DNA of 64,000 nucleotides from a candidate division WOR-3 bacterium (GCA_965648905.1 CBFGIT010000002.1:1-64000), one strand, 5' to 3'; positions 20,488 to 43,709 are shown, counted from the stretch's first letter. The notes: a model not told the origin generated them from the sequence alone. Translations and numbers: made by a program.

Positions 20488-20498
20488 GGGAGGCTTCA

Positions 20499-21560
20499 AT
20501 GAGAATCTTCAATGACCAGACTCCAATGACCAGATTCATCGCGGTCGGGCTGTGCCTGGCGGTTCTCTCTCCGGCCTGGGCTGCTTTCTCCAAGGTCGGG
20601 ACAACCGGCGCGTCGTTCCTCAAGATCAGCGTTGGCCGGGCTACCGGCATGGGTGATGCGTTTGCCGCGGTCGCCGACGACCCATCGGCGTGCTTCTTCA
20701 ACCCGGCCGGACTCGCCCGGGTCAGCCGGCAGATTCAGCTCAACCACGCCAACTGGATTGCCGACATCAACCACGACCATCTCGTGGCGGTACTGCCGCT
20801 GGCCAGCCTAGGCACAATCGCCTTCAGCGCCACGGCTCTGACCATGGGCGACATGGAACAGACGACGATCGACAACCCGAGCACCCGGACGCGCGAAGAC
20901 GAGGGCACCGGACTCTACTTCGGTGCGGCCGACTTTGCGGTGGCGGCGAGCTATGCCCGAATCATCACTGACAAACTCTCATTCGGGCTCACGGCCAAGG
21001 CTGTCACTCAGACGGTCTGGGACATGTCTGCCTCGGCCGTCGGCGCGGACTTAGGCCTTCACTACAACACCGGGTTCCGCTCCCTGCGCATCGGTGCCGC
21101 GGTCACCAACTACGGCACCCAGCTCAGCTTCACCGGACGTCAGCTCGACTACTCCTTCTTCTGGACCGACTCCGGGCCATCCAGCATCCAGGGAAGTTAC
21201 AAGACCACGCCGGCCGGACTGCCCACCAGCTTCCGGTTCGGCGTCGCCTATGACATCCTGGAAGGGCCGGACAACCGCCTGACCACCGCGCTCGACATCA
21301 CTCACCCGTCAGACATCAACGAAACGGTCAACTTCGGGCTTGAGTACGCGTACGGCGACATCTTCTCCCTGCGCGGCGGCTACATTCTGAACGCCGACAG
21401 CAAGTATCAGGAGTTGGTCGGCTGGATGACCGGGCTCTCAGCCGGCCTAGGGGTCAAAGCCAGCCCGGCTGCAGGCCTGAAGCTCGGCCTCGACTATGCG
21501 TTCCGCTATCTGCAGTGGGTGAAGCCGACTCATCGGCTGGCCCTGACCGTTGGCTTCTAG
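20499..21560 (+). CDS. PorV/PorQ family outer-membrane beta-barrel
   Basis: GTTGASFLKI...RATGMGDAF.A.ADD.SA.FFNPAGL, GLEY, LDYAF, C-terminal F. Confidence 0.88.
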   Translation: MRIFNDQTPMTRFIAVGLCLAVLSPAWAAFSKVGTTGASFLKISVGRATGMGDAFAAVADDPSACFFNPAGLARVSRQIQLNHANWIADINHDHLVAVLPLASLGTIAFSATALTMGDMEQTTIDNPSTRTREDEGTGLYFGAADFAVAASYARIITDKLSFGLTAKAVTQTVWDMSASAVGADLGLHYNTGFRSLRIGAAVTNYGTQLSFTGRQLDYSFFWTDSGPSSIQGSYKTTPAGLPTSFRFGVAYDILEGPDNRLTTALDITHPSDINETVNFGLEYAYGDIFSLRGGYILNADSKYQELVGWMTGLSAGLGVKASPAAGLKLGLDYAFRYLQWVKPTHRLALTVGF

Positions 21561-23703
21561 TCAATCACCGTTCCGAACAGCAGGGGCACGGCTTGCCGTG
21601 CCCCTGCTGCTGCTGTTCGCCGGTCCGGCCCCGGCCGCACAGTGGACCGTGGCCGTGTACATGGCCGCAGACAACGGGCTCGCCGACCAGGCCTACCTTG
21701 ACCTGGCCGAGATGATGCAGCTTGGCTCATCGTCCGAGCTGAACATCGTCGTTCAGGTTGACCGGCCCGCGCGTGACTCAAATCCCGGTTGTCGTCGGTA
21801 TCTGGTGCGGAATGGAAGGCTTGAGCTACTCGAAGAGCTGGCTGAGACCGACATGGCCGATTCTTTGACTCTTGCCCGGTTCGGCCGGTTTGTCAAGAAC
21901 CGGTATCCGGCAAAACAGCACTGTCTCGTGCTCTGGGACCATGGCAGCGGCTGGACCGAAGGCTACGGCCCAAGCCGGGCCATCTTCATTGACGAGTCGC
22001 ACCGGCACATGATGGGCGTGGCTGGCGGTGAGCTGGCTGCCGGTGTTGCCGGGTATCGAGACGAACTCGGCCGCAAACTCGACGTGCTTGCCTTTGATGC
22101 ATGCCTGATGGGCATGATTGAGGTCGCAACCGAGGTCAGGCATGAATGTCAGTACCTGCTTGCCTCTGAAGGTGCGGTTGTCTGGGGCGGGCTGGACTAC
22201 GCCAGCTTCCTGACCCACCTGACCGGGGCCGGTACGATGCCGGAACGTCTCACACGGGTCAGTCACGACTATGTAGCCGCGTATCCGGATGTCTGTGTCT
22301 GCATGTCGGCGTTGGATGTCCAGGAACTCGACAAGGCCTTGCCGGTGCTCAGGACTTGCCTCTCCGGGCTCACAACCAACGACTCTACGACTGTCTCTTT
22401 CCTGCGCACAGCACGAGCCCAGGTGCAGACCTTTGCCCCAGTGCTCACCCGGCCGCCGTGCCGCACCGACGACCAGGTTGACCTCATTCACCTCTTCGAG
22501 CTTTTTCCCGGCGCTGACTCGCTGGTTCGAACGCTCAAGCGGGTCGTGGTCGCCAATGCCGCGTCCGAAAGCCTGCCCAATGCCCGTGGACTTGCGGTCT
22601 GGTTCCCGAACCGGTATCTCGCGCTCAAGAACGCGATTCGTTCTTATCAGAAGCTTGAGTTCGCCAGCGCGGTGCCATGGCCGCAGTTTCTGAACAACTT
22701 CTTCGGCAAGGATGATATCAAGCCATCCCAGCCGACACTCGCCGTACCCCGGCCTGGCCGGCGCGGCGATGTTCGGCTGTCCTGGACCAGCTCAGCCGAC
22801 CTTGCTCCGGTCAGGTACGACCTTGTCGAATTCACCGGCCCAACCGAGGTGATGGCGGACAACTGCGAGAATCTTAGCCGCTGGACCGGCTCGGGCTGGA
22901 CGCTCGGTACCGGGCAGGTTCGATCCGGCTCCTATTCGTTCTATTCGGGCACAGGCGCGAATCTCGACCACCGACTGGCGATGGCCGGGCCGCTGGACAT
23001 GCACGCGGGCGGGCTGCTCTCGCTCTACGCCTGGTATGCGACTGAAGAAACCGAGGATTCACTGGGCAGTATGGTTCGCGACATCTGCTACATTGAATGG
23101 ACGCGCGACCGCACCCAATGGCAGCCGCTCGACTCGCTCTACGGGTCGGAACGAGCATGGCACGAGCGGCGCTATGTCCTGCCAAAGTCCGAGAGTCTGT
23201 ACCTTCGATTCCGGTACGTCACCAACGCCGCCAACCACGGCCCGGGTGTCTACTTTGATGACCTGAAAGTCTACCGGTTTGATGCACTCCGTCCCGTCGC
23301 CAGCACCACGGACACAACAGCCTATGTCTTCAACCGGCCGCGCGACACCGCCGGCTACTACTACCTGGTGACCGCACGTGACTCGTTCGGCAACGTCTCA
23401 ATGGCGAGCCAGTTCTCTGCACCGGCGGCAATAGAGTGGTGGGCCGAACCCTACACATTGCCTGCGCCCTTTGCTGGTCCGTGCCAACTGGTCCTTGACT
23501 TTCCGGAAGGAAAGACGCCGGACGTCTCAATCTACACCCTGTCTGGAACACTACTGCGGCAGTTCAGGAACGTGACATCGAAGCAACTCGACTGGAATGG
23601 CTGCAACCAAGCAGGCAAGCCTCTTGCTGACGGGCTTTACTTGGTCTCGGTCCGGGCTCCGGGGTTCCACGTCTTGGGCAAGATCGCCTGCGTCCACCGC
23701 TAG
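21550..23703 (+). CDS. Clostripain-related (C11) peptidase with C-terminal FlgD/T9SS-like domain
   Basis: WTVAVYMAADNGL, VLWDHGSGW, FDACLMG..EVA, LLASE; CTD WNGCNQAGKPLADGLYLV; start uncertain (21550 TTG or 21598 GTG). Confidence 0.88.
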   Translation: MASSQSPFRTAGARLAVPLLLLFAGPAPAAQWTVAVYMAADNGLADQAYLDLAEMMQLGSSSELNIVVQVDRPARDSNPGCRRYLVRNGRLELLEELAETDMADSLTLARFGRFVKNRYPAKQHCLVLWDHGSGWTEGYGPSRAIFIDESHRHMMGVAGGELAAGVAGYRDELGRKLDVLAFDACLMGMIEVATEVRHECQYLLASEGAVVWGGLDYASFLTHLTGAGTMPERLTRVSHDYVAAYPDVCVCMSALDVQELDKALPVLRTCLSGLTTNDSTTVSFLRTARAQVQTFAPVLTRPPCRTDDQVDLIHLFELFPGADSLVRTLKRVVVANAASESLPNARGLAVWFPNRYLALKNAIRSYQKLEFASAVPWPQFLNNFFGKDDIKPSQPTLAVPRPGRRGDVRLSWTSSADLAPVRYDLVEFTGPTEVMADNCENLSRWTGSGWTLGTGQVRSGSYSFYSGTGANLDHRLAMAGPLDMHAGGLLSLYAWYATEETEDSLGSMVRDICYIEWTRDRTQWQPLDSLYGSERAWHERRYVLPKSESLYLRFRYVTNAANHGPGVYFDDLKVYRFDALRPVASTTDTTAYVFNRPRDTAGYYYLVTARDSFGNVSMASQFSAPAAIEWWAEPYTLPAPFAGPCQLVLDFPEGKTPDVSIYTLSGTLLRQFRNVTSKQLDWNGCNQAGKPLADGLYLVSVRAPGFHVLGKIACVHR
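21578..21609. repeat. REP-like perfect palindrome
   Basis: CAGCAGGGGCACGGC-TT-GCCGTGCCCCTGCTG, 15-bp arms. Confidence 0.7.
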
Positions 23704-23733
23704 TCCCGGTCACCCAGGCGAACCTATCGGGCG

Positions 23734-23762
23734 AAGAAAGAGCCCCGGCATGAGCCGGGGCT
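23734..23762 (-). terminator. Intrinsic terminator between convergent genes
   Basis: AGCCCCGGC-ATGA-GCCGGGGCT hairpin; pyrimidine tail CTTTCTT on the minus strand. Confidence 0.65.
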
Positions 23763-23780
23763 TGGGAGGTGGGATTGAAA

Positions 23781-24608
23781 CTAGTGCTGAATCAGGCGCA
23801 GGCCTTTGACCGTCTGGTACCAGGACTTAATCTGGATTGTGCCTGAGCCAAGGTTCTTGCCGTCAAGATGGATGAGCGCGTAGTAGCCGTCAGTCTTGGT
23901 GTAGACCGCCATCAGGAACGGAGTTTGGTCGATCTCCTGATAGTTCGCGTAGACCGTCTCCGTGTGCTCGGGCAGAGGGTCGTTCTCGGCGCCAGCTACT
24001 TTGGCGATGGCGTTGACCCGCCAAGCACCGGTCGGCACCACGCCGGCTGCGCCCGGGTCGCTGCCCACGGCGATGTCCGGGCTGGCAATACAATACTCCG
24101 GTCCGGCAAATCCGGTCGCAAAGTCGGTCAGGTAGATGTCAACCGATGCGGCATTGCCGGCCTGAGTCATCGAGTAGGTTGTCGCCGTGCCCGCGGTCTT
24201 GGTCCAACCGTAGCCGGAGTTGCCGGCAGCGTTGAGTTCAGAAAGCGAAGTCGCCGCGTTGGCAACCGGCGCAGTCGAGGGCGTGGTTGTGGCCGCATAC
24301 TCGGTGCTGCCGAACAGAGCAACGACCTTGTAGGAACCGGTCTTGCCGGCCGGGTTGTGGGTTGCCTCGGTCACGGTCACGGTGCAAGCAGGCACTTCCG
24401 CGGTTGTTCCGGTTTCCTTGAAGTACACGATGTACTTGTCCGGGGTTCCTTCGCTGGGTGCAGTCCACTTGATCTTGACCGTGGATGACGTGGCTGCCTC
24501 GAGCTTGACGTCGGTCGGTTCACTGCCGGTCACCTCGGTACAGCGGATAAGTGTCAGTGCGGTGATGGCGAAGATGCCGACTGCCGCGATTGCGAATAGC
24601 TTCTTCAT
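23781..24608 (-). CDS. FN3-domain lipoprotein
   Basis: AGGAG RBS, MKKLFAIAAVGIFAITALTLIRC signal, FN3-like PTDVKL...IKWTAP..Y.VY. Confidence 0.8.
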   Translation of the reverse strand: MKKLFAIAAVGIFAITALTLIRCTEVTGSEPTDVKLEAATSSTVKIKWTAPSEGTPDKYIVYFKETGTTAEVPACTVTVTEATHNPAGKTGSYKVVALFGSTEYAATTTPSTAPVANAATSLSELNAAGNSGYGWTKTAGTATTYSMTQAGNAASVDIYLTDFATGFAGPEYCIASPDIAVGSDPGAAGVVPTGAWRVNAIAKVAGAENDPLPEHTETVYANYQEIDQTPFLMAVYTKTDGYYALIHLDGKNLGSGTIQIKSWYQTVKGLRLIQH

Positions 24609-24637
24609 GATACTCCTTTTCCTCTTGTCCTGCGAAA

Positions 24638-24916
24638 TTAGCGCCCAACCTTGGGCGGCTTGCCGGTCGGCGCCTTGGGTGTCGGCGCCGGCGTGCTGCT
24701 GCCTTTGGCCGCGGGCTTCTTGGCACTCATGTCGGCGATTACCTTGGCCAGGGAATCGCACTCTGCGGTCTTCTTGGCCAGGTCCATCTTGGCCTGGTCC
24801 AGTTCCTGGGTCAGCTTGTCGACCTGTCCCTGGAGCTCAGTCACCTTCTTGGTGTCCTGGCATCCGATGACGAATACTACTGCGAGTATCGCCATAGCGG
24901 CTACGAGCTTTCTCAC
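24638..24916 (-). CDS. Small coiled-coil lipoprotein
   Basis: AGGAGG RBS, lipobox VIGC, heptad coiled coil, Pro/Lys-rich tail. Confidence 0.8.
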   Translation of the reverse strand: MRKLVAAMAILAVVFVIGCQDTKKVTELQGQVDKLTQELDQAKMDLAKKTAECDSLAKVIADMSAKKPAAKGSSTPAPTPKAPTGKPPKVGR

Positions 24917-25006
24917 ATGTTCCTCCTTTTTGGCGTACTGTGAGCCGTTGCTACTTCATCTGTCCGGGCAACCGGCCGCTGTCCGACCGCCCGGCATTAC
25001 TTCTCT

Positions 25007-25627
25007 TCACAGAAGCACCCTCAACTCGGACGGGTGCCGTATGGGCATAATTGTAGGCCCGGCCAACCGCATGTCAAGAACACGGGTCCGGCGAACCAGT
25101 AGGCCTTTGGGTCTATCTACCGGGCGCTCATGCCGTTCCTTCCGCTCGGGCTGTTCGAGTCGCAGAAAGGGGCCGAGCAGCCTTGTGCCCTGCCGTGCTA
25201 TCTCGTTAGTCAGGATGCTGGAGCCGACTGAAACGCGGGCCTCGGCCCGAAAGAGAGTACATCCCGTGACAATAAGCCAGACAAGCATCAGCCCCTTGGC
25301 CAGGCCTAGCCCGGCCCCGAGCAGCCGGTCGAACCAGCCAAGCGGGGTATGGTGCAGAAGCCGGCTGGTAAGCCCGCCGATTGCGCCGGCAACCACGACC
25401 ACGACCAGAAATGTCAGGACATAGCCTAGGAACCTGGCCCAGGCCGGATGGGAAATGACGACCAGGACCCAGTGGCCGGCCTGACCGCCATAGCGCCATG
25501 CCAGATACCCGCCGGCAACGATGCCGATCAGAACAAACAGGTCCTTGACCAAGCCCCGAGCCGCGCCAAGCAGGACAAAGCAGACAAGCAAGGCAAGAGT
25601 GATGGCATCAACAATCGTCATCGGCAT
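25007..25627 (-). CDS. cvpA: CvpA (colicin V production) family membrane protein
   Basis: VD...G..RGLVK...DRLLGAGLGLAKG. Confidence 0.85.
   Translation of the reverse strand: MPMTIVDAITLALLVCFVLLGAARGLVKDLFVLIGIVAGGYLAWRYGGQAGHWVLVVISHPAWARFLGYVLTFLVVVVVAGAIGGLTSRLLHHTPLGWFDRLLGAGLGLAKGLMLVWLIVTGCTLFRAEARVSVGSSILTNEIARQGTRLLGPFLRLEQPERKERHERPVDRPKGLLVRRTRVLDMRLAGPTIMPIRHPSELRVLL
25050..25077 (-). promoter_or_regulatory. Sigma70-type promoter for the two lipoprotein genes, inside the cvpA 3' end
   Basis: TTGACA-16 bp-TACAAT on the minus strand. Confidence 0.5.
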
Positions 25628-31696: not shown

Positions 31697-32413
31697 TTGC
31701 ACGAACCAGATGAACTGCTAAAGTCGCTGGCCGACGCGGTCGTGGCCATGAAGCCGGAGCTTGTGGCCGAGCTGGCACGGCAGGCGATTGAGCAGGGTGT
31801 ACCCGCGGAGCAGGCTATCAATAGTGGCCTTGCGGCCGGGATGCGCCGGATGGGCGAGAAGTTTGCAGCCCGCGAGTGTTTCGTGCCTGAAGTCTTGCTG
31901 GCGTCGCGGGCGATGTACGTCGGGTTTGAGATTCTGCAGAAGAAACTCACGGACGGCGGCCGGGAACTCGTCTCCCGCGGCAGGGTTGTGCTCGGCGTGG
32001 TGCAGGGCGACATTCACGACATCGGCAAGAACATCGTGAAGGTGATGGCTCAGGCCGCGGGTTTTGAGGTCATCGACCTGGGGCGGAACGTCAATCTGCC
32101 CGAGTTCGTGCGGGCAGTGGAGCGGGTGCTTGAGCGGGGAGGCGTGGGACATGATACGAATTGTCGGACAATTCGTTCATGTCCCGCACCGGTCCTGGGG
32201 ATGTCATCGCTCATGACCACGACCATGCCGCGCATGGGCACGGTGATTGGAATGCTTGACAAGGCCGGGCTGCGCCGGCAGGTGAAGGTGATTGTCGGTG
32301 GTGCGCCGACCACGGCCGAGTTTGCCCGTCGGATTGGTGCAGATTCCTGGGCAAGGGATGCACACTCCGCGGTCGAAGAAATTGCTCGGTTGGCGCACGG
32401 CCCAGAAACATGA
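31697..32413 (+). CDS. Corrinoid (cobalamin-binding) methyl-carrier protein, MtaC/MttC-like
   Basis: Cap domain GL..GM...GEKF....FVPEVL, B12 motif GDIHDIGKNIV, SSLMTTTM, VIVGGAP. Confidence 0.93.
   Translation: MHEPDELLKSLADAVVAMKPELVAELARQAIEQGVPAEQAINSGLAAGMRRMGEKFAARECFVPEVLLASRAMYVGFEILQKKLTDGGRELVSRGRVVLGVVQGDIHDIGKNIVKVMAQAAGFEVIDLGRNVNLPEFVRAVERVLERGGVGHDTNCRTIRSCPAPVLGMSSLMTTTMPRMGTVIGMLDKAGLRRQVKVIVGGAPTTAEFARRIGADSWARDAHSAVEEIARLAHGPET
32146..32185. repeat. Palindromic element, in frame inside the corrinoid gene
   Basis: GGGACATGATACGAATTGTC-G-GACAATTCGTTCATGTCCC; encodes GHDTNCRTIRSCP. Confidence 0.8.
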
Positions 32414-33399
32414 GCGCGGAACGGATGAGGCGGTTCGAGGACTTGCTGAAAGGCCTGTGTCCCTCGCCGGTGGTGTTTCCGATGGTGGTGGCGAATCACG
32501 CGGCGCGGCTTGAGGGCTTTGCCATCAGCGAGGCTGTCACCCAGGCTGACGTGCTCGCGCGGGTGCTGTACTCGGCGTACCGGTTCTACGGCTATGACAT
32601 TGTGCTCGTTTTCACCGATACCGTGGTCGAGGCCGAGGCGATGGGCGCACAGGTTCTTGTTCCTGAGGACGATGACCCGTTCGTGCTGTCGCCGGCAAGA
32701 GTGGCGAAGATTGAGCCGGCCGATCCGGAAAAGGACGGCCGGATGCCGGTCGTGCTCGAGGCGACGCGTCGGCTGGTCAAGCTGCTCGCCGGCGAAGCGC
32801 CGGTGCTTACGTCGCTCAAAGGGCCATTTTCCCTGGCTGCCTTTCTGTGCGGGGTCGAGAACTTCCTCGCGGACCTTCTGGACAATCCCAGGCGGGCGCG
32901 GCACTACCTTGATGTGGCGACCGAAAACCAGGTACGTTACGCCGAGGCCATCATCAAGGCGGGCGGGATTCCGTTCATCGGCGACCCGGTTGCCTCAGGC
33001 AGCATGATTAGCCCGGTGATGTTTCGTGAGTCTGCCCAGCCATACCTCGCCCGGCTTGTGCAGGTAATTCACGAGCAGGGCGTCAAGGTAGGACTGCACA
33101 TCTGCGGCGATACGCGGCAGTCATTACCGGACATGGCACGCACCGATGCCGATATCCTAAGCATCGACGAAATGGACTTGAGCGAAGCTCGCGCCAAGGT
33201 CGGGCCGGATGTGGTGCTGATGGGCAATGTCTCGACCCGAGTTCTGCTTGAGGGCACTCCGGACCAGGTCGCGCAGGAAACGCGCAAGTGCATCGAGACC
33301 GGCGGCGGCCGGCTGCTTATCTCTTCAAGCTGTGACGTGCCGACCGACGCACCCAAAGAGAACGTGCAGGCAATGGTGCAGGCCGCGCGAGGGACATGA
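32410..33399 (+). CDS. UroD/MtaA-family (methylcobalamin:thiol methyltransferase-like) protein
   Basis: VEAEAMG, P..DGRMPVVLEA, GPFSLA, DPVASGSMISP, HICG, SCDVP. Confidence 0.88.
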   Translation: MSAERMRRFEDLLKGLCPSPVVFPMVVANHAARLEGFAISEAVTQADVLARVLYSAYRFYGYDIVLVFTDTVVEAEAMGAQVLVPEDDDPFVLSPARVAKIEPADPEKDGRMPVVLEATRRLVKLLAGEAPVLTSLKGPFSLAAFLCGVENFLADLLDNPRRARHYLDVATENQVRYAEAIIKAGGIPFIGDPVASGSMISPVMFRESAQPYLARLVQVIHEQGVKVGLHICGDTRQSLPDMARTDADILSIDEMDLSEARAKVGPDVVLMGNVSTRVLLEGTPDQVAQETRKCIETGGGRLLISSSCDVPTDAPKENVQAMVQAARGT

Positions 33400-33430
33400 C
33401 CGAAATGCAGGGCATTTCGGATGGTGTCCC
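33391..33430. repeat. Palindromic element supplying the stop codon of the upstream gene
   Basis: GGGACATGACCGAAATGC-AGG-GCATTTCGGATGGTGTCCC; TGA at 33397-33399. Confidence 0.8.
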
Positions 33431-33463
33431 GAGGTTTGGCGTCCCAAGCCCCATGAGGCAACG

Positions 33464-34723
33464 ATGATTGGCAGAGAGACGTTTGAGCGCGTGCGGCAGG
33501 AGCACCTGGCCGAGCTGACCGAGCTGCAGCGACAGGGCAGAAAGCTGGTGGGCTATTTCTGCATCTACGCGCCGGTCGAGGTAATACACGCCACAGGTGC
33601 GATTCCGGTCCGACTGATGAAAGGCGGACACGCGGCCGAGACCACGGGCGAGAAGTTCCTGCGCTCAGATGCTTGCTCATTCTGCTCAAGCTGTCTCGGC
33701 AATTTCGAACTCGACCCGCTGTACCGCCAGGTGGATGCGGTTGTGGCTGTGAACACCTGCGACATGATGCGACGGCTACCTGAGGCAATTGAGACGCACT
33801 TCAACAAGCCGGTGTACCAGCTCTACCTGCCGCGGACCTCTGAGCCGCTGCCGCACCGGGTGGCCGAGTTCGTCAGGCAGCTTGAAGAACTGGGTTCTGC
33901 TGTGGCGGCGCTGACCAGAGAAGGGGGACACGATCCGAAACTCGCGGACGAGTCTCGGTTATGTCCCCAAGTCCTAGCCGAGGCGGTTGCCTCCTACAAC
34001 CGGTTGCGCGGGCTGCTCAGGCAGGCTCACGAGACACGGCGCGCCGACAATCCGCTGCTTTCTGAGAGCGCGATGCTTGACCTTGCGGCCACGGCCTGGT
34101 TTCTTGGGCCTACCAAGGCCGAATCGTTCATCGACAGCATGCTGCGGATTGTCTGGGCCCGACCCCGGCATGAAGGTTCACGGCCAAGGCTGATGCTCGG
34201 GGGCAGCATGTTGACCGAGGACGACCGGTGGCTGCTTGAGATGATTGAGGAGCGGGCCGATGTCGTCACTGATATCCTCTGCACCGGTACGCGCTGGTTC
34301 GCGGAAGACGTTCCGGCCGCGGAGGGACATGACCGGAATTGCCAGGACAATCCCTTGTGCGGTTTTGGTCGGTTGCACTCCCATCTCTCCGCAACTCTGA
34401 CCGGGACTGACTCGCGGGGCAATTCCGGATCGTGTCCCGAGACACAGATGCATTCCCTGGCCGAGTTCTACTACTCCCGGATTCCCTGCATGCACCGCCG
34501 GCCCAATGATGCGCTGTACGAGTACGCGCGGCGACAGGCAAGAGAGTTCCGGGTCGCAGGAGTCGTCTACAAGACCCTACTCTACTGCGACCCGTACAAC
34601 TTCGAGGCGAAGCGGCTCAAGGCCGCTCTGGGCCTGCCCATGCTGCACCTGGACACCAGCTACGCGCAGGAGAACCGGGAACAGGTGCGGACCCGGGTCG
34701 AGGCGTTTCTGGAGATGCTGTGA
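33464..34723 (+). CDS. 2-hydroxyacyl-CoA dehydratase (HgdA/B, BcrB/C, DCCP) family Fe-S protein
   Basis: VGYFC.YAP.E.I.A.G, NTCDMMRR, RPRLML.GS, LCTG, YCDPY, TRVEAFLEML; start corrected to ATG 33464. Confidence 0.9.
   Translation: MIGRETFERVRQEHLAELTELQRQGRKLVGYFCIYAPVEVIHATGAIPVRLMKGGHAAETTGEKFLRSDACSFCSSCLGNFELDPLYRQVDAVVAVNTCDMMRRLPEAIETHFNKPVYQLYLPRTSEPLPHRVAEFVRQLEELGSAVAALTREGGHDPKLADESRLCPQVLAEAVASYNRLRGLLRQAHETRRADNPLLSESAMLDLAATAWFLGPTKAESFIDSMLRIVWARPRHEGSRPRLMLGGSMLTEDDRWLLEMIEERADVVTDILCTGTRWFAEDVPAAEGHDRNCQDNPLCGFGRLHSHLSATLTGTDSRGNSGSCPETQMHSLAEFYYSRIPCMHRRPNDALYEYARRQAREFRVAGVVYKTLLYCDPYNFEAKRLKAALGLPMLHLDTSYAQENREQVRTRVEAFLEML
33925..33967. repeat. Palindromic element, in frame, inverted orientation
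   Basis: GGGACACGATCCGAAACTCG-CGGA-CGAGTCTCGGTTATGTCCC; encodes GHDPKLADESRLCP. Confidence 0.8.
34324..34438. repeat. Extended palindromic element (115 bp), in frame
   Basis: Arms GGGACATGACCGGAATTGCC (34324-34343) and GGCAATTCCGGATCGTGTCCC (34418-34438) around a 74-bp core. Confidence 0.8.
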
Positions 34724-36141
34724 GTCTGCCCGCGGACTGGGTGGACCCGGAGCCGAAACGTGTCACCTTTGACGAGTGGCTGGAGTTGTTCGAGCGTGTC
34801 CCGGATGAGCTGATTGAGCAGTACCACTACTATGGCAACCAGGACGCCTGGTCCAAGTACCTGTTTCCGCCCCAGACCTTTGCCATCTACGGCGCGCGCC
34901 ACCTGCGCCGCCTGAAGTTCGACAACTCGCTTGCTGCCCTGCGAATGTGGGGCTTTGTCCAGAACGAGACCGAGCGGCTGTTCCGCGCACGTCAGACCGG
35001 AAAGAAGGTCATCGCCACCATGGGCGACCTGGGCGCAGTGCCGGTCATCGTCAACTCATTTCCTAACTGCGTGGCCTTCTATCCTGACTGCATCTGGTGG
35101 ACACCTTTCGTCATGGAAAGCAAGGTGTTGTTCGACGCTGCAGCCGAGCTGGGCATTGGTGACGCGACCTGTTTCTCGCGTGCGGCCTTGGGCGCGTTTG
35201 CCAAGCACTCGTACTTTCCAGACCCGGACCTGGTCATTGCTTCGACCGGAGCCTCGTGCGACGACTATTCCGGTGTTGAGCAACTGGCCACCAGCATCGC
35301 TGCGGACGTGCTCTGGGTCGAGGAGCCGCTGAGAAAGGAATGCAGAATAGGGAATGCAGAATGCGGAAGGACGCAAAGCGGGATGGGGTATGAGCCGGAG
35401 CTACGCGAGCTGCTGGTTGAGGAGTATCGCCGGATAGTCTTGCGCATGGAGGAACTGACCGGCCACCAACTGACCACGGACGAGCTGAGGGCCGGCGTGC
35501 ACAGGGCGAACTTGGTGCGCAAGACTGTAAGGAGACTGCGCGAACTGGCATACCGCGACGGTGCACTTGCTGCGCTTGAGATGATGGTGGTCGAGTTCGG
35601 CAATCTCCATTACTACTCAGATATAGACGAGTGGACCGCAATTCTTGAACACCTGCTCGAAACAGCCGGGCAACGTCGCCGCGCTGGTCAACGGATCGTG
35701 GCCCAAGATGCCCTGCGCATCGTCTGGGTCACACCACCGGCTGACCCGTTGCTATTGACCTTTGTCGAAGACCGGGGCGCCCGCGTCGTCGGCACTGAGT
35801 ATGTCATCAACCAGGCGCTGGAGGTGATGGATGAGTCGCTCGATCCCCTGGAAGCAATTGCCGACTCCTTTCTGGCCGCATCGCTCATCGGCACATCGCG
35901 CGCCCGGGCCGAGGCAGCCGCAAGTCAGGCGCGAGAGAACCATGCCGAAGGGGTCATCATCTCTGGTATCCTTGGTGGCTCGCACTGCGCCATGGAAAGC
36001 CGGCTCATTTCTGACCACATCAAGACTGAGCTTGACCTGCCGGTGCTGGAGTTCGACGTCGCGCCACCGGCACGCGAAATCGACCGACAGGTGCAGACGC
36101 GAATCGAGGCGTCTCTGGAGCTGATACGGAGTCAACGGTGA
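34720..36141 (+). CDS. Second 2-hydroxyacyl-CoA dehydratase family subunit
   Basis: GKKVIA, ATCFSRA, PDLVIA..GASCDD, LEELTG-like MEELTG, GSHC, QVQTRIEA. Confidence 0.85.
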   Translation: MSLPADWVDPEPKRVTFDEWLELFERVPDELIEQYHYYGNQDAWSKYLFPPQTFAIYGARHLRRLKFDNSLAALRMWGFVQNETERLFRARQTGKKVIATMGDLGAVPVIVNSFPNCVAFYPDCIWWTPFVMESKVLFDAAAELGIGDATCFSRAALGAFAKHSYFPDPDLVIASTGASCDDYSGVEQLATSIAADVLWVEEPLRKECRIGNAECGRTQSGMGYEPELRELLVEEYRRIVLRMEELTGHQLTTDELRAGVHRANLVRKTVRRLRELAYRDGALAALEMMVVEFGNLHYYSDIDEWTAILEHLLETAGQRRRAGQRIVAQDALRIVWVTPPADPLLLTFVEDRGARVVGTEYVINQALEVMDESLDPLEAIADSFLAASLIGTSRARAEAAASQARENHAEGVIISGILGGSHCAMESRLISDHIKTELDLPVLEFDVAPPAREIDRQVQTRIEASLELIRSQR

Positions 36142-37193
36142 AGGACATCCTGACCCCGCGCGAGCGGTTCGGCCTTCTGGTTATCGACGAGCCGCAGGAC
36201 CGGGTCCCGGTCTTTCCCTTGGTCACCGCGCACGCGACCCGGGTTGCCGGTATCGGCCTGCGCGACTACTACACGGACGGGTTTGCCATGGCGCGCGCCC
36301 AGCTTGCCGCGCAGGAGTTCTACGGCATCGACTTCATCTCGTTCTTCTCTGAGGTCGGGCTCGTGGCCGAGGCCCTGGGCTCGAAGTTCGACTACCCGGA
36401 TGATGACCTGCCGATGCTGGCAGAGCCAAGGTGGCGCGAACTGGTTGACCCTGATGAGCTCGTAGTCAACCCGCGTGCTGACGGCCGGCTGCGCGTGTAT
36501 CTTGACGCGATTGCCTATGCCTATGAGGCACGGGGTGACACTGTGCCGATTCTTGCCTATGTGCCTGCTCCGTTCACGACCGCGCAGCAACTCGTGGACC
36601 AGGAGGCATTTCTGCTCGGACTTCTGACTGAGCCGGAGCGCGTTCATGCGCTACTGCGCCACGCCACTCGGTCGGTCAGGAGCCTTTGCCGCGGGGTGAT
36701 TGGTGCAGGCGGCCTGCCGATTCTTGTCGACCCGCTTGCCTCAGGCAGTGTCATCTCAGCCGAGCACTACCGCGCGTTCGCCCTGCCTTACGAAGCCGAG
36801 GTCATCCGCTACCTGCACCGTTACGACCTCGATGTGGTACTCCACATCTGCGGCGACACAAATCCCATCATCGAAATGATGCCAGAGTCAGGTGCAGATC
36901 TTCTGAGCATCGACCGCATCGAACTGCGCGACGCGGTCAGCAGCGCAGGCCAACGCTGCCGCATCATCGGCAACCTTGATACCTCGGCAATACTCCTCGG
37001 CTCCCCGGGTGAGATCGCCGACACGGTTGCCGAGATGATTGCGGCGGGTCAGAAGAACCCGACCGGGTTTGTCGCGGCAACCGGGTGCGAAGTGCCGCTC
37101 GACACACCACCGGAGAACGTCCATGCCTTTGTCCGTGCTGCCCGGGAAGCAGGACGCAATCCAGACTATGCTCAGGCACGGAGGGTAAGTTGA
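36138..37193 (+). CDS. Second UroD/MtaA-family protein
   Basis: TPRER...DRVPVFP, AEALG, APFT, DPLASGSVIS, LHICGDT, GCEVP..TPPENV. Confidence 0.88.
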   Translation: MKDILTPRERFGLLVIDEPQDRVPVFPLVTAHATRVAGIGLRDYYTDGFAMARAQLAAQEFYGIDFISFFSEVGLVAEALGSKFDYPDDDLPMLAEPRWRELVDPDELVVNPRADGRLRVYLDAIAYAYEARGDTVPILAYVPAPFTTAQQLVDQEAFLLGLLTEPERVHALLRHATRSVRSLCRGVIGAGGLPILVDPLASGSVISAEHYRAFALPYEAEVIRYLHRYDLDVVLHICGDTNPIIEMMPESGADLLSIDRIELRDAVSSAGQRCRIIGNLDTSAILLGSPGEIADTVAEMIAAGQKNPTGFVAATGCEVPLDTPPENVHAFVRAAREAGRNPDYAQARRVS

Positions 37194-37963
37194 TTACTGC
37201 CGGAATTGACGTTGGCTCAGTCAACACCAAGCTTGTCATCTTCGACCATGAACGGGCACAATTCGTCTGCGAGATGGTCGAGCCAACCGGACCGCGGCCG
37301 AGGGAAACCGCGCGTCGGGTCTTGAGTGAGTGTCGGGAGAAAAACCCGGGTCTTGAGACCAGGGTGCAGGGCATGGTTGCGACCGGTTATGCACGGCATG
37401 CGGTCGACGGCGTACATGACACAATTACCGAAATCAAAGCCGCGGCACTTGGCGTCAGGCACTGGTTCCGCGAGTGCCGAACCGTGGTCGACATCGGCGG
37501 ACAGGACTCAAAGGTGCTGGCCCTGGACGATGACGGGCGCGTGCAGGACTTCGTGATGAACGACCGGTGCGCTGCCGGGACCGGCAACTTCCTGTCGGTA
37601 TTGTCGCGCGCGCTAGCTGTGCCGCTTGAGGACTTTGGCCGGTTGAGCCTGGAGTCGCGGCGGCCAGTGCCGATTTCAAGCCTGTGCGTGGTGATGGCGG
37701 AATCGGAGATACTGTCACTGCTGGCCGCAGATACGCCGGTGCCAGATATCATCGCCGGTCTGCATCAAGCCCTGGCCCGACGCATCGCGAACATGGCTGC
37801 GCGACTCAAGATACAGCCCCAGGTAGTTTTCACTGGCGGCGTAGCCCAGAACCCGGGCATGAAGTTGGCCCTGGAGCAGGCGCTCGGTTTGCCGGTGACC
37901 GTACCCGAGAAGCCGCTGCTGGCCGCAGCCCTGGGCGCGGCACTGGCTAGCGGCAGTAAGTGA
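37190..37963 (+). CDS. ATP-dependent acyl-CoA dehydratase activase (HgdC/BadF-type ASKHA, 4Fe-4S)
   Basis: GIDVGSVNTK, TGYAR, TEI, DIGGQDSK, MNDRCAAGTG, SSLCVVMAESE, FTGGVA; TTG start at 37190 overlaps the upstream stop. Confidence 0.93.
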   Translation: MITAGIDVGSVNTKLVIFDHERAQFVCEMVEPTGPRPRETARRVLSECREKNPGLETRVQGMVATGYARHAVDGVHDTITEIKAAALGVRHWFRECRTVVDIGGQDSKVLALDDDGRVQDFVMNDRCAAGTGNFLSVLSRALAVPLEDFGRLSLESRRPVPISSLCVVMAESEILSLLAADTPVPDIIAGLHQALARRIANMAARLKIQPQVVFTGGVAQNPGMKLALEQALGLPVTVPEKPLLAAALGAALASGSK

Positions 37964-39377
37964 AACGCTGGGGCAAGAGGCCGCTTGCGCGTGGGAAGAC
38001 GATAAAGTAGCTGCCGGATTTCAAGTCCGTTAGAGCCCACTTGAGCTGACCAGGCTCAGCCGTAATGTCTGCCACCTGACGTCCGGTTGCGTCATACACG
38101 CAGACCCGACCGGCGCGAGCAGCCTCGGGCAGTCTCAGCAGCACCGTGTCGCGCGAGACGTTCTGGCGCGTGCCATACCCTCCAACCAGAGGACGCGTTT
38201 CGGTCCGGCGGTTGACCCGATCCCAGAAATCGAGATAGGCGTTGAGGACCATGCTGCAGGCGCGGTCTGTGACCTGCCGTGCCTGGTCCGCAGACGGGCC
38301 GGTCCTGCCCCATTCTGCCTCGGCGCTGTCCACCAGCAAGAACAGGACTGATTCGGTCAAGGCGAAACTATCGTACATGTCCTTCAACCGGTAGGTATTG
38401 ACAGCGGACGGGAACTCGTCGGACGAGTGAACGTACTCATGCAGTCTCAACGCCTCGTCACAAAGCAGGGCTGTTCCATCTCCGCTCAGCAGTCCGTGCA
38501 CCGGCCCGGCCTGAACCCAGAGCGGAACCGGCAGACTGACCTCAGCCGGCCCGAGCATCACCCACATCATGCCCGTGGAAGGAAGGTCGCCGGGTCGGGG
38601 CCCAACCATGATCTCCACTGAACGGGTCGTGACCCGACAAAGCGAACTCTCGGTTGGCAGGAATCCCCGTGGCAGTCCGCCCAGTATACTGTCGAAAGGG
38701 AGCGGATAAGGGTTGAAGTTGAATGCACCGAGGTCGCGGGCAAGAACTTGGACAACGAACCGCGTGTTAATCCGACGTTCGCGGGCAGCCGGCAACGCAA
38801 GTTCCATTGCCCGCAGGTAGCGGGCCCGACCGGTCTGTCGGCTCGGGTTGCCCGACATTGAGTAGTTGGCGCGGATGAGAAAATCGAAGCTGTCCTCGGT
38901 CGTGTTGTGACGGACGTAGAAGAGATTGCTTGCCTCAAAGATTGCCGCTGCGCCGGTGGCGTCGAACACACCATAGTTAGCCGGGGTCTGGCGGCCAACG
39001 ACGTTGAGCGAATCGAGCAGTTGGGCGAAGTCATCAAGCGTGGCACAAGTTGCCAGTGCGAGGTTCATCACCGTGCCGTCATCATCATCGATGTTGAAGG
39101 AGTTTGAGTTCATGATGGCGAACCCGGTTTCATTGATTCCAGCCCAGGCGTTGAGCGTGTCGCCGGCATAGACATTGGTGACGTACCGGAACCGGCTGCC
39201 GACCAGAAAGCGCATTGCCTGATTCGGATTCGTCACGTCGCGATTCTTCCAGAGAATCGGCCGACCATCAGACGTCGAGCCCGGACCGAAAGCACCGATG
39301 GTGCAGGCGGCGGAGAGCGAGGGCAGAAGGCAGAATGCAGAAGTCAGAAGGCAGAATACCGACCGGCAAGACATCAC
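37947..39377 (-). CDS. Secreted Ntn-hydrolase (C45/isopenicillin-N acyltransferase-like) with C-terminal sorting domain
   Basis: Signal then N-terminal nucleophile CTI...DGRPILWKNRD, AGINETG, ANYGVFD; CTD VYDATGRQV...SGSYFIV. Confidence 0.82.
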   Translation of the reverse strand: MMSCRSVFCLLTSAFCLLPSLSAACTIGAFGPGSTSDGRPILWKNRDVTNPNQAMRFLVGSRFRYVTNVYAGDTLNAWAGINETGFAIMNSNSFNIDDDDGTVMNLALATCATLDDFAQLLDSLNVVGRQTPANYGVFDATGAAAIFEASNLFYVRHNTTEDSFDFLIRANYSMSGNPSRQTGRARYLRAMELALPAARERRINTRFVVQVLARDLGAFNFNPYPLPFDSILGGLPRGFLPTESSLCRVTTRSVEIMVGPRPGDLPSTGMMWVMLGPAEVSLPVPLWVQAGPVHGLLSGDGTALLCDEALRLHEYVHSSDEFPSAVNTYRLKDMYDSFALTESVLFLLVDSAEAEWGRTGPSADQARQVTDRACSMVLNAYLDFWDRVNRRTETRPLVGGYGTRQNVSRDTVLLRLPEAARAGRVCVYDATGRQVADITAEPGQLKWALTDLKSGSYFIVFPRASGLLPQRFTYCR

Positions 39378-41795: not shown

Positions 41796-41888
41796 GAACA
41801 TGTCGACTTGGGGCTTCGGCCGACTTCAGTCGGCACCTCGGTCGACCAGGCGATTTCCTGATACTGTGAATTGTCCAAAGGAGGACTA

Positions 41889-43709
41889 ATGTTCGTAGCA
41901 GTACTGACCATCGCCCTCGTGGCCGCCGCACCGGTAAGCCCGGTTCAGCCGGGTTCGGCGCCGGTGCTGTTCGGCGGCGGCGGACCCGATGCCTACGGCT
42001 ACCGGTATCTCGATTCTGATACCGTCTGCCCGGGTGCGCCGACCTACACGTGGGTGGATATCAAAGGCACCGGTACGCGGATTACCGGACTCGGTGACGA
42101 CAATGTCGTCGGGCCGTTCGGCCTAGGCTTCGAGTTCCCGTACTACTGGTACCGCGTCAGTTCGGTATTCGTCGGTTCAAATGGCTACATGTGTTTCGGC
42201 GACCGGGGCCTGAACGCCTCGCCGTTTCCAGCGGTGCCCAGCCCGGCAGGCACGAACAACACCGTGGCCATCCTGATGAGCGACCTTGACCCGAGCTCGG
42301 GCGGCTCGCCGACCGGCTCGGTCTGGTACTGGACCAACGCTGCGGCCGATACGTTCATTCTGGAGTACGACTCGATTCGATTCTGGAGCACGGGCGGCAA
42401 CAATTCGTTCCAGATCATCCTGTCCAAGCCTGATTCCTCGATAACGTTCCAGTACAAAGAGCAGTCGGGCATGCCCTATCAAGGCTGGTCGCCGACGAAC
42501 AATCAGACCGGGATTGAGAACGTCTCCGGCGCGGTCGGGCTGAACTACCTGTCGGGCACGGTTCCACCCGGCAACATGTACCACGCCGAACTCGCGGTTC
42601 GCTTCTACCCGCCCGAATCAACCAACTACCAGGTACATGACGTCGGTGTGCGCAACGCCATGAACGACCGCTCCGGCGGGATGTTCTGCGTGAACAACCG
42701 ACCGCTCCACATGTGGGCCGTGGTCAAGAACTTCGGCAACCAGGCGGAGCCCGAGTTCAAGACCTACTTCAAGGTCAAACGTCCGACCGGCGCGGTGCTG
42801 TTCACCGATTCGGTCGCAGTGCGGGCGCTTGCGCCGGGCGAGGTCGATTCGCTGGTGCCGGCCAACACCTGGACACCAAGCAGCACCGGTCCCTTTGTCG
42901 TCGAGGTGGCAACGCTGCTTACCGGTGACATGATGCGGCGCAACGACTCGGCCCGGGTCGAATGCCGGGTCGTGACGATTCCGGCGACACTCGGCTACGA
43001 CGGCGGTACGCCCAACAGCTACATGTCCTGGAACGGGCCGGGCGGATTCGGCAACCGCTTTGAACCACCGGTCTATCCGTGCAGCGTGATGAGCTATCGG
43101 ATCTACTCGCAGGCGACTTCGTCGACCGAGGCGCTGCTCTGTCTGTTCGACGACAACGGACCGGGCGGCTCGCCGGGCGACACCCTCCACTCCGGCACAA
43201 TCACCGTGACCGCGCCCCAGTGGTATACGGTCACCCCGCCGTCACCGATTGTCATCAACGACGGGGCGTTCTTCGTCGGCGCGATGTCGGCGATCTCCAG
43301 CGCACCGTCGTTCGGCATGGACTCCATCCTGCCGCTTTCTTTCCAGGGATGGGAGTACACGGGCGTGTGGGCGCCGAGCCGCGACGCGGCGGCACGCGAT
43401 GTCGTTGCCAATGCTATCGTCCAGGGCCCGGTCGGACTGATGGAACTGGCACCAGTGCCCGCGCCGGTGCCGGTACGGATTGACGTGAGTCCGAACCCGT
43501 TCGGCACGAGTGCGCGGGTGCGGCTTCTGAATCCGCGCGGGACCGAGCAGAGCATCGAGCTGTTCGACGCTGCGGGTAATGCCCTGCATACGGTCGAGCT
43601 CGTGCGCGGCACGGCCCGGCTCGACCGTCGCGGCCTGGCCGATGGCGTCTACTTCGTCCGTGTCGCTGGAGCCGAATCTCCGGTCGCGAAGGTCGTCATC
43701 GCCCAGTAG
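41889..43709 (+). CDS. Secreted protein (GGPD-type N-terminal domain, CARDB-like Ig) with T9SS-like CTD
   Basis: GGAGG RBS; GGPDAYGYRYLDSD, GDDNVVGPF.LGFEFPYY, VSPNPF...LFDAAG...GVYFVR. Confidence 0.85.
   Translation: MFVAVLTIALVAAAPVSPVQPGSAPVLFGGGGPDAYGYRYLDSDTVCPGAPTYTWVDIKGTGTRITGLGDDNVVGPFGLGFEFPYYWYRVSSVFVGSNGYMCFGDRGLNASPFPAVPSPAGTNNTVAILMSDLDPSSGGSPTGSVWYWTNAAADTFILEYDSIRFWSTGGNNSFQIILSKPDSSITFQYKEQSGMPYQGWSPTNNQTGIENVSGAVGLNYLSGTVPPGNMYHAELAVRFYPPESTNYQVHDVGVRNAMNDRSGGMFCVNNRPLHMWAVVKNFGNQAEPEFKTYFKVKRPTGAVLFTDSVAVRALAPGEVDSLVPANTWTPSSTGPFVVEVATLLTGDMMRRNDSARVECRVVTIPATLGYDGGTPNSYMSWNGPGGFGNRFEPPVYPCSVMSYRIYSQATSSTEALLCLFDDNGPGGSPGDTLHSGTITVTAPQWYTVTPPSPIVINDGAFFVGAMSAISSAPSFGMDSILPLSFQGWEYTGVWAPSRDAAARDVVANAIVQGPVGLMELAPVPAPVPVRIDVSPNPFGTSARVRLLNPRGTEQSIELFDAAGNALHTVELVRGTARLDRRGLADGVYFVRVAGAESPVAKVVIAQ

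Follow-up and report, generated by a model that had tools for sequence, protein, structure and literature searches.

Why should genes for corrinoid-dependent methyl transfer enclose genes for an ATP-driven iron-sulfur reductase in a single operon? The question is raised by six co-oriented genes at positions 31697-37963 of a 64,000-nucleotide stretch (hereafter, the window) from a candidate division WOR-3 bacterium (GCA_965648905.1 CBFGIT010000002.1:1-64000). This operon is the form lacking the corrinoid activator RACE of a seven-gene module, corrinoid protein (CP)-MlpA-RACE-X-Y-MlpB-activase, which is conserved in one WOR-3 class, and the absence of RACE is a secondary, lineage-specific loss. 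In our best reading, to which we give an even chance, the module serves to recover selenium from its methylated forms and has an ATP-driven reductase tethered to the methyltransferase machinery. Gene content, ligand patterns, conserved order, co-occurrence, purifying selection, and the docking prediction come from computation; we infer that the substrate contains selenium, in which direction methyl groups flow, and what the reductase does.

The six open frames, all on the + strand, are intact and have the expected domain content in Pfam and NCBIfam, in agreement with an earlier note on this DNA that had named a corrinoid protein, two MtaA-like proteins, two Hgd-family subunits, and an HgdC-type activase. 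The gene g1 (31697-32413, 238 aa, with a provisional TTG start) encodes a corrinoid (cobalamin-binding) carrier (B12-binding_2, 70.7 bits; B12-binding, 79.5 bits). MtaA-like Zn methyltransferases are encoded by g2 (MlpA, 32410-33399, 329 aa; URO-D, 243 bits) and g5 (MlpB, 36138-37193, 351 aa; URO-D, 235 bits). Between them lie g3 (33464-34723, 419 aa; HGD-D, 233 bits), encoding the BzdN/DCCP-like subunit X with a six-Cys double-cubane pattern, and g4 (34720-36141, 473 aa; HGD-D, 126 bits), encoding the putative catalytic subunit Y. An HgdC/DCCP-R-type ATP-dependent activase is encoded by g6 (37190-37963, 257 aa; BcrAD_BadFG, 169 bits), which scored 231.5 bits against TIGR00241 of NCBIfam (cut-off 125.4). 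When the starts were re-read from the DNA, g3 began at ATG 33464 with GAGG ahead of it and g6 at TTG 37190 preceded by GGAGGG, and the four previously claimed 4-bp overlaps were found at g1/g2, g3/g4, g4/g5, and g5/g6. The only non-overlapping junction is g2/g3, with a spacer of 64 nt. The six genes are one operon. A scan for promoters and terminators gave chance-level results only, and no known RNA family or riboswitch in or before the operon scored near the gathering threshold. No sequencing run for the operon appeared in public listings.

The arrangement was compared with that in relatives. The first 16 loci were obtained by a search with an alignment of g3 homologues in assemblies of uncultured bacteria, with gene order checked by tblastn using the six proteins, and 14 more distant loci were picked from the g4 matches of the phylum, comprising rows flagged with a TGA and a spread of families. 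The order CP-Mlp-(RACE)-X-Y-Mlp was identical in all 30 loci, as far as the contigs extend; thus, the methyltransferase and reductase halves are linked well beyond this genome. In 27 of the 30 loci (15/16 and 12/14), a gene of about 1.4 kb is inserted between g2 and g3, and its Fer2, RACo-middle, and RACo C-terminal domains identify it as a RACE/RamA-type corrinoid activator. The loci without it are L001 (in G182, a genome of the same genus), L023, and L028. Because the great majority of related loci carry RACE inside the cluster, its absence here is a derived loss, and an ancestral module containing both RACE and an archerase suggests that the two ATPases originally did different jobs. These are two of the three known classes of electron-transferring metallo-ATPases as described in the text of PMC9351452. 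The earlier note had reported no substrate-specific MT1, RACE, or CoA-transferase in the operon, and Pfam annotation likewise found no MtaB/MttB, RACE, or CoA-transferase gene within it; the lack of RACE is nonetheless not a property of the module. As a separate observation, MlpB is followed by a BREX BrxC/D gene in L030 and by a gene for a cyclase-TPR protein in L033.

Among 272 genomes of the phylum, Y (counted as present at a homologue E of 1e-20 or better) was found in 86, all within one class, and the named database matches belong to candidate division WOR-3 or Stahlbacteria. In a protein atlas, the cluster nearest to Y has 752 members. RACE (PF14574, RACo_C_ter) occurs in 71 of the 132 genomes of this class, 70 of which are Y-positive, the exception being 87% complete. 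The genome studied here, which is 99.6% complete, has no PF14574 match anywhere and is one of 16 Y-positive genomes without RACE. These comprise both genomes of its own genus (g1), both of genus g12, G184, and eleven of family f14, the last including three single-contig genomes (G149-G151) that are 93-97% complete. RACE was therefore lost in at least four lineage places (genus g1, genus g12, G184, and family f14). Compared with the same-genus RACE-less genome, the ratio of nonsynonymous to synonymous substitution rates (dN/dS) was 0.06-0.15 for all six genes at a dS of 0.6-1.1, indicating that the RACE-less operon is maintained by selection. Elsewhere in the genome, a second corrinoid operon (L017, contig C1, 63.4-67.2 kb) encodes an MttB-family methyltransferase, a MetH-type activation-domain protein, a corrinoid protein, and a homocysteine S-methyltransferase; the MetH-type protein is a possible stand-in for RACE.

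The methyl-transfer half appears complete in its ligands. The His of the DxHxxG motif in g1 is H107 and is kept in 15 of 15 aligned corrinoid proteins, and the nearest NCBIfam models of g1 are MtgC/MtbC, every one below its cut-off. The best Protein Data Bank (PDB) match of both g2 (E 4e-30) and g5 (E 4e-23) is MtaA 4AY7, and their top NCBIfam models are of the MtaA/CmuA type, also below cut-off. The HxC motif and C-terminal Cys that had been noted in both proteins form His-Cys-Cys Zn sites, H230/C232/C308 in g2 (16/16 aligned sequences) and H236/C238/C317 in g5 (15/15, and invariant in a wider set of 26 sequences), and these residues align with the matching stretches of 4AY7. In the text of Kountz and Balskus (2023, PMC10418091), this Zn pattern is assigned to S/Se methyltransferases. 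The implication of the earlier note that an MT1 was missing does not hold, because two MtaA-type enzymes and a corrinoid protein already constitute a full methyl-transfer set, as in SdmABC and type I mlp clusters. No tetrahydrofolate methyltransferase was found in the cluster in the annotated loci and their flanks. A candidate selenocysteine in MlpB of L033 was rejected, as the TGA is the stop codon of the gene.

For the reductase half, the best PDB sequence match of X is DCCP (E 1.4e-23), followed by HadC, BzdN, and MbdN, while Y matches DCCP over its C-terminal half only. The AlphaFold model of X (pLDDT 80.9) has BzdN 8S02_B as its top Foldseek match (E 1.1e-20, TM 0.75/0.84), and N/beta-type chains are favored over O/alpha-type chains by about nine orders of magnitude. 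The AF2 model of Y (pLDDT 84.4, pTM 0.89) matches DCCP (5e-18) and HadB, BzdO, and MbdO (about 1e-13), as well as MbdN and BzdN, with no clear preference. For both models, the Foldseek probability to DCCP, Had, Bzd, and Mbd chains is 1.00. In the phmmer alignment, C33, C71, C99, C273, C342, and C375 of X fall on Cys positions of DCCP, and the second Cys of the published seven-Cys DCCP motif is Met in X. After two inserts are subtracted, the spacing of these six Cys residues equals that of the [8Fe-9S] ligands Cys36/73/100/263/293/327 of BzdN. Among 17 sequences, C71, C99, and C375 are each kept in 17, C33 and C342 in 14, and C273 in 13. Three of the 17 orthologues lack C33, C273, and C342 together (alignment A1, including P0106 and P0112); these residues are presumed to form the distal half of the double cubane, and some lineages may have a single [4Fe-4S] cluster in X. 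In Y, C124, C151, C180, and C423 are invariant in 28 sequences, and C151/C180/C423 are spaced, after an offset, like residues 95/128/380 of BzdO, the ligands of its catalytic [4Fe-4S]-OH2 cluster; the additional Cys, C124, could close the site. Y also carries a conserved N-terminal region specific to the family. In g6, C127 and C166 are kept in 14 of 14 sequences, and we equate them with the cysteine pair that holds the bridging cluster of HgdC-type homodimers.

Curated models give both subunits low scores. Against NF040772 (DCCP, cut-off 350 bits), X scored 172.4 and Y 76.5, compared with 465.8 for the true DCCP encoded on contig C4 of the same genome. The HadC model (cut-off 700) gave 92.4 for X and 17.9 for Y, and the scores for BzdN (67 vs 454) and BcrC (44 vs 421) were likewise far under cut-off. 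Judged from sequence, the HGD-D pair falls outside both the 2-hydroxyacyl-CoA dehydratases and the canonical DCCPs, and the NCBIfam scores, the PDB alignment, and the Foldseek result of X agree in setting aside a standard 2-hydroxyacyl-CoA dehydratase. In alignments and predicted folds, X and Y resemble a BzdNO-type reductase, for which g6 would be the homodimeric archerase. A selenocysteine in Y was considered and rejected; the "1 TGA" in 24 listed g4 matches is an ordinary stop codon that the search had read through.

The two halves may also be in physical contact. Y and MlpB were chosen for complex prediction, as their genes abut or overlap in at least 15 loci and are the best conserved of the module (46-57% identity in distant loci for g4 and g5, compared with 24-28% for g3). 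With our own alignments (28 rows for Y and 26 for MlpB), the predicted complex reached an ipSAE of 0.92, and the best of three controls 0.00; in calibration, 116 of 157 solved complexes attained the mark applied, compared with 2 of 215 mismatched pairs, figures that are rough for our own alignments. The runs share at least 89% of contacts, with a partner pLDDT of at least 91. The contact residues are 18-60, 85-92, 132-136, and 161-164 in Y, which include the conserved N-terminal region, and 4-18, 129-138, 185-193, and 228-231 in MlpB. No PDB entry is common to the match lists of Y and MlpB, and it is therefore unlikely that the complex passed from model memory. The model supports binding of Y to MlpB as a prediction.

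The genomic context points to selenium, a link that goes beyond the earlier note. In 6 of the first 16 loci, the gene immediately ahead of CP is selD, which contains an in-frame TGA (GUASK), and SelD is thus itself a selenoprotein (GUASK in L005, 3736-4836). Among the 14 distant loci, selD is within the locus in five, and selA-selB lies directly downstream of the activase in six; overall, selD, selA-selB, or both were found in 14 of 30 loci. A class I S-adenosylmethionine (SAM) methyltransferase of about 263 aa, ArsM/UbiE-like and under all NCBIfam cut-offs, is encoded upstream of CP in 13 of 30 loci, directly so in 12. Additionally, a true DCCP with its own activase is encoded just upstream of the module in L025 and L028. 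These recurrent neighbors suggest the composite arrangement selD...(DCCP, DCCP-R)-SAM methyltransferase-CP-MlpA-RACE-X-Y-MlpB-activase-selA-selB, which is their sum, no single fetched locus having every gene.

In the genome studied here, the selenium genes are scattered, with selA on contig C1, selB and a second selD on C8, and tRNA-Sec on C35. A region of C4 (78000-92000, L018) contains genes for a SAM methyltransferase, a DCCP, an activase, and two Omp28-family proteins, two unassigned open reading frames, and a TGA-containing selD, and is the split-off half of the selenium gene neighborhood. In L005, selD is preceded by the same Omp28 pair. The two TGA-containing selD copies lie at C4:87631-88554 and C8:88040-88942, the latter beside selB.

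Across the phylum, selD was above cut-off in 119 of 272 genomes, and a tally of the two survey tables placed it in 81 of 86 Y-positive and 38 of 186 Y-negative genomes; four of the five Y-positive genomes without selD are less than 85% complete. If only the class is counted, 81 of 103 genomes with selD have Y, compared with 5 of 29 genomes without selD. The cluster and selD are both absent in G222, G167, G173, G128, G131, G140, G156, and all 11 genomes of family f6.

We propose that MlpA, MlpB, and the cobalamin carrier would demethylate methylated selenium, the role put forward for SdmABC and the type I mlp clusters, and would thereby yield selenide for SelD. X and Y would form a BzdNO-like heterodimer in which X may store electrons on a double-cubane cluster and Y may hold a catalytic-type [4Fe-4S] site, with the HgdC-type ATPase charging the heterodimer and Y tethered to MlpB. 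The reductase would then act at low potential, at the Y cluster, on a substrate or intermediate that contains selenium, a reading to which we assign a chance somewhat short of even. Family precedent favors a selenium compound at this site, as does the existence of a further, canonical DCCP, which is encoded near selD in this genome and immediately ahead of the module in L025 and L028.

Several points weigh against this proposal. The selenium substrate is our interpretation, and sulfur analogues would be compatible with the sequence. The co-occurrence counts overstate the case because relatives share ancestry and are not independent. Three of the 14 distant loci (L024, L030, and L033) lack an adjacent activase gene, which the other 11 have. 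The interface segments of MlpB precede beta-strands in the alignment to MtaA, and by TIM-barrel topology this places the interface on the face opposite the Zn site, so that no active-site channel is implied; the predicted contact is better regarded as a tether than as a channel. Demethylation of dimethylselenide or methylselenol by Co(I) requires no extra reductant. The methanogen Sdm system, as described in the text of PMC11097638, runs without such a reductase. Finally, the loss of RACE with X, Y, and the activase kept (16/86 genomes) fits a cobalt-directed role at least as well.

That cobalt-directed role is the alternative that survives best, and we consider it rather unlikely. Here, ATP-boosted electrons from X/Y and the activase would enter the corrinoid carrier while it is held at MlpB, either reducing Co(II) to Co(I) in place of RACE or demethylating CH3-Co(III) reductively without a methyl acceptor. 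The carrier cobalt is favored as the target by the repeated loss of RACE, in at least four lineage places, while X, Y, and the activase were retained, and by purifying selection on the RACE-less operon of genus g1. RACE, in turn, occurs in the class only together with Y, apart from the one incomplete genome. The predicted binding of Y to a corrinoid-dependent methyltransferase and the failure to find a tetrahydrofolate methyltransferase in the cluster would also fit. Against it, the ancestral module has RACE as well as X, Y, and the activase, which makes simple redundancy unlikely as the original role, and the MetH-type protein of the other corrinoid operon might reactivate the carrier. Characterized members of the reductase family, according to the text of PMC11971306, all act on small molecules at an open cluster site. 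A new route to Co(I), which the earlier note had offered, consequently does not explain the origin of the reductase, since 27 of 30 loci hold a RACo-type gene inside the cluster and it did not arise as a RACE substitute, but stays alive for the 16 RACE-less genomes. In its most integrated version, X/Y, MlpB, and the carrier would be one machine, with a double-cubane reductase acting directly on protein-bound cobalamin by Co(I) regeneration or CH3-Co(III) demethylation (e.g., to methane), a version that we hold to be unlikely.

Next, the module might handle methyl-sulfur compounds, as in methionine or methylthio salvage, with the selenium link reflecting neighborhood and shared ancestry only. 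The His-Cys-Cys sites suit sulfur as well as selenium, and the text of PMC10418091 describes type I clusters of a non-selenium clade whose partner is a different ATP-driven reductase, MarHDK-like. However, 14 of 30 loci have selD, selA-selB, or both with the module, the joint absence of the cluster and selD recurs in several separate lineages, and no sulfur-metabolism gene was seen in the annotated flanks of the loci; we therefore regard this explanation as quite improbable.

Repeats within two genes, together with the missing RACE, raise the further possibility that the operon is a decaying remnant. A family of 40-nt perfect-stem palindromes (GGGACAYGA...TCRTGTCCC) is repeated across the genome, with 50 arm matches compared with 4 for a control pattern. 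A regular expression recovers 20 full copies, of which 15 are exactly 40 nt long. Within the window, these palindromes occur only inside the operon (6 arm matches vs 0.18 expected), where they fold as strong hairpins. One copy (32146-32185, 40 nt; -33.3 kcal/mol, z -8.1) is in frame in g1 as part of an 18-aa extra loop that is absent from 14 of 14 orthologues. In g3, a 43-nt copy (33925-33967) adds 12 residues, with pLDDT <50 at residues 155-161, and a 115-nt composite (34324-34438) adds about 39, with pLDDT <50 at residues 288-325; both are in frame, and the inserts are absent from the orthologues (alignment A1), the closest of which, P0002, has 365 aa compared with 419. A further 40-nt copy (33391-33430) spans the g2 stop and the g2-g3 spacer, at the position of RACE in relatives, and L001, from the second genome of the genus and likewise RACE-less, has the element at this junction as well; none was found in 30 other fetched loci outside the genus. 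The palindrome at the site of the lost gene in both genomes suggests that RACE may have been lost by deletion between repeat copies. The family resembles Rickettsia palindromic elements, and at least 7 of its approximately 20-25 copies sit in the two corrinoid operons of the genome. The palindromes were also considered as selenocysteine insertion sequences (SECIS) and rejected: the family is repeated throughout the genome, and a TGA is in frame in only one of the four, where it is the g2 stop and the next stop follows 18 codons on.

Decay would account for the lost RACE and for the extra residues inserted in frame (18 in g1, about 12 and 39 in g3), and yet it is very improbable. All six frames are open, all ligand residues are kept, and the low dN/dS was obtained against a same-genus genome that also lacks RACE. 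The inserts fall in low-pLDDT segments while the rest of the fold is confident, and the same repeat is in frame in uvrC and other intact genes, namely those for a SAM methyltransferase, an FtsX permease, a PP-loop ATPase, an ABC ATPase, and large secreted proteins (L017, L019, L034-L048).

That X, Y, and the activase are an ordinary 2-hydroxyacyl-CoA dehydratase or aryl-CoA reductase and mere neighbors of the methyltransferases, as the HGD-D domain of both subunits, the concordant automatic names, and an AMP-binding enzyme gene 3 kb upstream in the window might suggest, is scarcely credible in view of the low HadC, BzdN, and BcrC scores, the methyltransferase genes on both sides of X/Y in 30 loci, the predicted docking of Y on MlpB, and the annotated flanks, where no CoA-transferase was found and neither a CoA-transferase or ligase gene nor the AMP-binding gene recurs next to the cluster.

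The genes flanking the operon in the window are unrelated to it and encode thioredoxin, rubrerythrin, secreted proteins with sorting tails, GcpE, and an EPSP-synthase-fold protein. Many secreted proteins with FlgD-Ig or Por_Secre_tail domains surround it (17578-25424, 37947-39377, 41871-43709, and 51202-54000), including a clostripain-family peptidase, an M28 peptidase, and an AAT-fold protein.

Double-cubane and benzoyl-CoA reductase (BCR)-type ATP-driven reductases reach the lowest potentials known in biology, and we know of no natural substrates for them outside aromatic and 2-hydroxyacid metabolism. It is also poorly understood how anaerobes supply SelD with selenide from the methylated and reduced selenium of anoxic habitats. 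The operon joins these two questions. Because its order is fixed in 30 of 30 loci and a contact is predicted, the module offers a defined six- or seven-protein set for reconstitution, and the 16 RACE-less genomes are a natural experiment on keeping a corrinoid protein active. If the one-machine version were true, methylated selenium could be mineralized to selenide without a methyl acceptor, with RACE dispensable in the Co(I) form; this would be the first physiological job of a DCCP/BCR-type enzyme outside CoA-ester chemistry and a third way to keep corrinoid enzymes reduced.

Among known systems, RACE/RamA is the usual ATP-dependent activator from Co(II) to Co(I); it lies inside the module in 27 of 30 relatives and is absent from this genome and 15 other cluster-bearing genomes. 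DCCP is the best PDB sequence match of both X and Y. It is a homodimer with a double cubane per subunit, whereas here the pattern is in X only and lacks the second motif Cys. DCCP/DCCP-R (6ENO, 7YYL) is described in the text of PMC9351452 as an ATP-driven low-potential reductase whose physiological substrate is unidentified, and DCCPs have been reported, in the text of a preprint, to be statistically tied to selenium-using anaerobes (Haft and Gwadz, bioRxiv 10.1101/2022.07.06.499078).

According to the text of a 2025 study (Nat Commun, PMC11971306), BzdNO and BzdPQ constitute the class I benzoyl-CoA reductase, energized by ASKHA Fe-S ATPases, and BzdNO has one subunit with a six-Cys [8Fe-9S] cluster for electron storage and another with a three-Cys [4Fe-4S] cluster with an open iron. 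The pair described here is similarly a putative heterodimer of two diverged HGD-D subunits, with the six-Cys pattern, judged from sequence, in one (X) and an ASKHA ATPase partner (g6). It differs in showing no sign of a CoA-ester substrate and in the extra invariant C124 and the conserved N-terminal region of Y, which is used in the predicted MlpB contact. The single activase gene implies a homodimer like HgdC or DCCP-R rather than BzdPQ.

The SdmABC system of Methanococcus voltae and M. maripaludis likewise consists of a corrinoid protein and two MtaA-family methyltransferases tied to selenium supply. In the text of PMC11097638, the Sdm locus rises 5.6-7.8 log2-fold under selenium starvation in M. 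maripaludis, and dimethylselenide is a selenium source in these methanogens (Niess and Klein 2004, as cited there). SdmABC differs in being archaeal, in having coenzyme M as the proposed methyl acceptor, and in lacking an associated ATP-driven Fe-S reductase.

The closest counterparts are the type I mlp clusters (Kountz and Balskus, bioRxiv 2023, PMC10418091), described in the preprint text as several MtaA-like proteins with a corrinoid protein and Ram/RACE, by criteria that include an Mlp from each of the Mlp2 and Mlp3 clades. Methyl-selenium or methyl-sulfur metabolism is argued for them there, and selenide methylation was demonstrated for one Mlp2. In the same source, the legend of Fig. 5 lists DCCP, DCCP-R, selD, selA, and selB as frequent neighbors, a supplementary table includes several clusters without RACE, and the clusters are placed in selenocysteine-making anaerobes, 87% of species with such clusters having the selenocysteine machinery, a tendency. 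The operon studied here shares with them two MtaA-like proteins, His-Cys-Cys Zn sites, a corrinoid protein, and a genome with selenocysteine machinery; it has only two Mlps, and the likeness is drawn from these features. Unlike the usual type I cluster, the operon and its genome lack RACE, the reductase is a diverged two-subunit X/Y rather than DCCP, and X/Y is fixed between the two Mlp genes, with Y predicted to bind MlpB. The terms "WOR-3," "DCCP," and "dicubane" were not found in the text of the supplement, the phylum lying outside those tables. In a literature search for the combination, covering texts and open supplements but not drawn clusters or other figures, this preprint was the only relevant prior work, and no two-subunit BzdNO-like reductase fixed between Mlp genes, no contact with an Mlp, and nothing on this phylum was found. 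The earlier statement that no characterized system has this composition thus stands, as far as the preprint text goes, for characterization, and is superseded bioinformatically. This kind of cluster had already been noted in the preprint, uncharacterized, and what is new is its two-subunit BzdNO-like variant together with the predicted complex of Y and MlpB.

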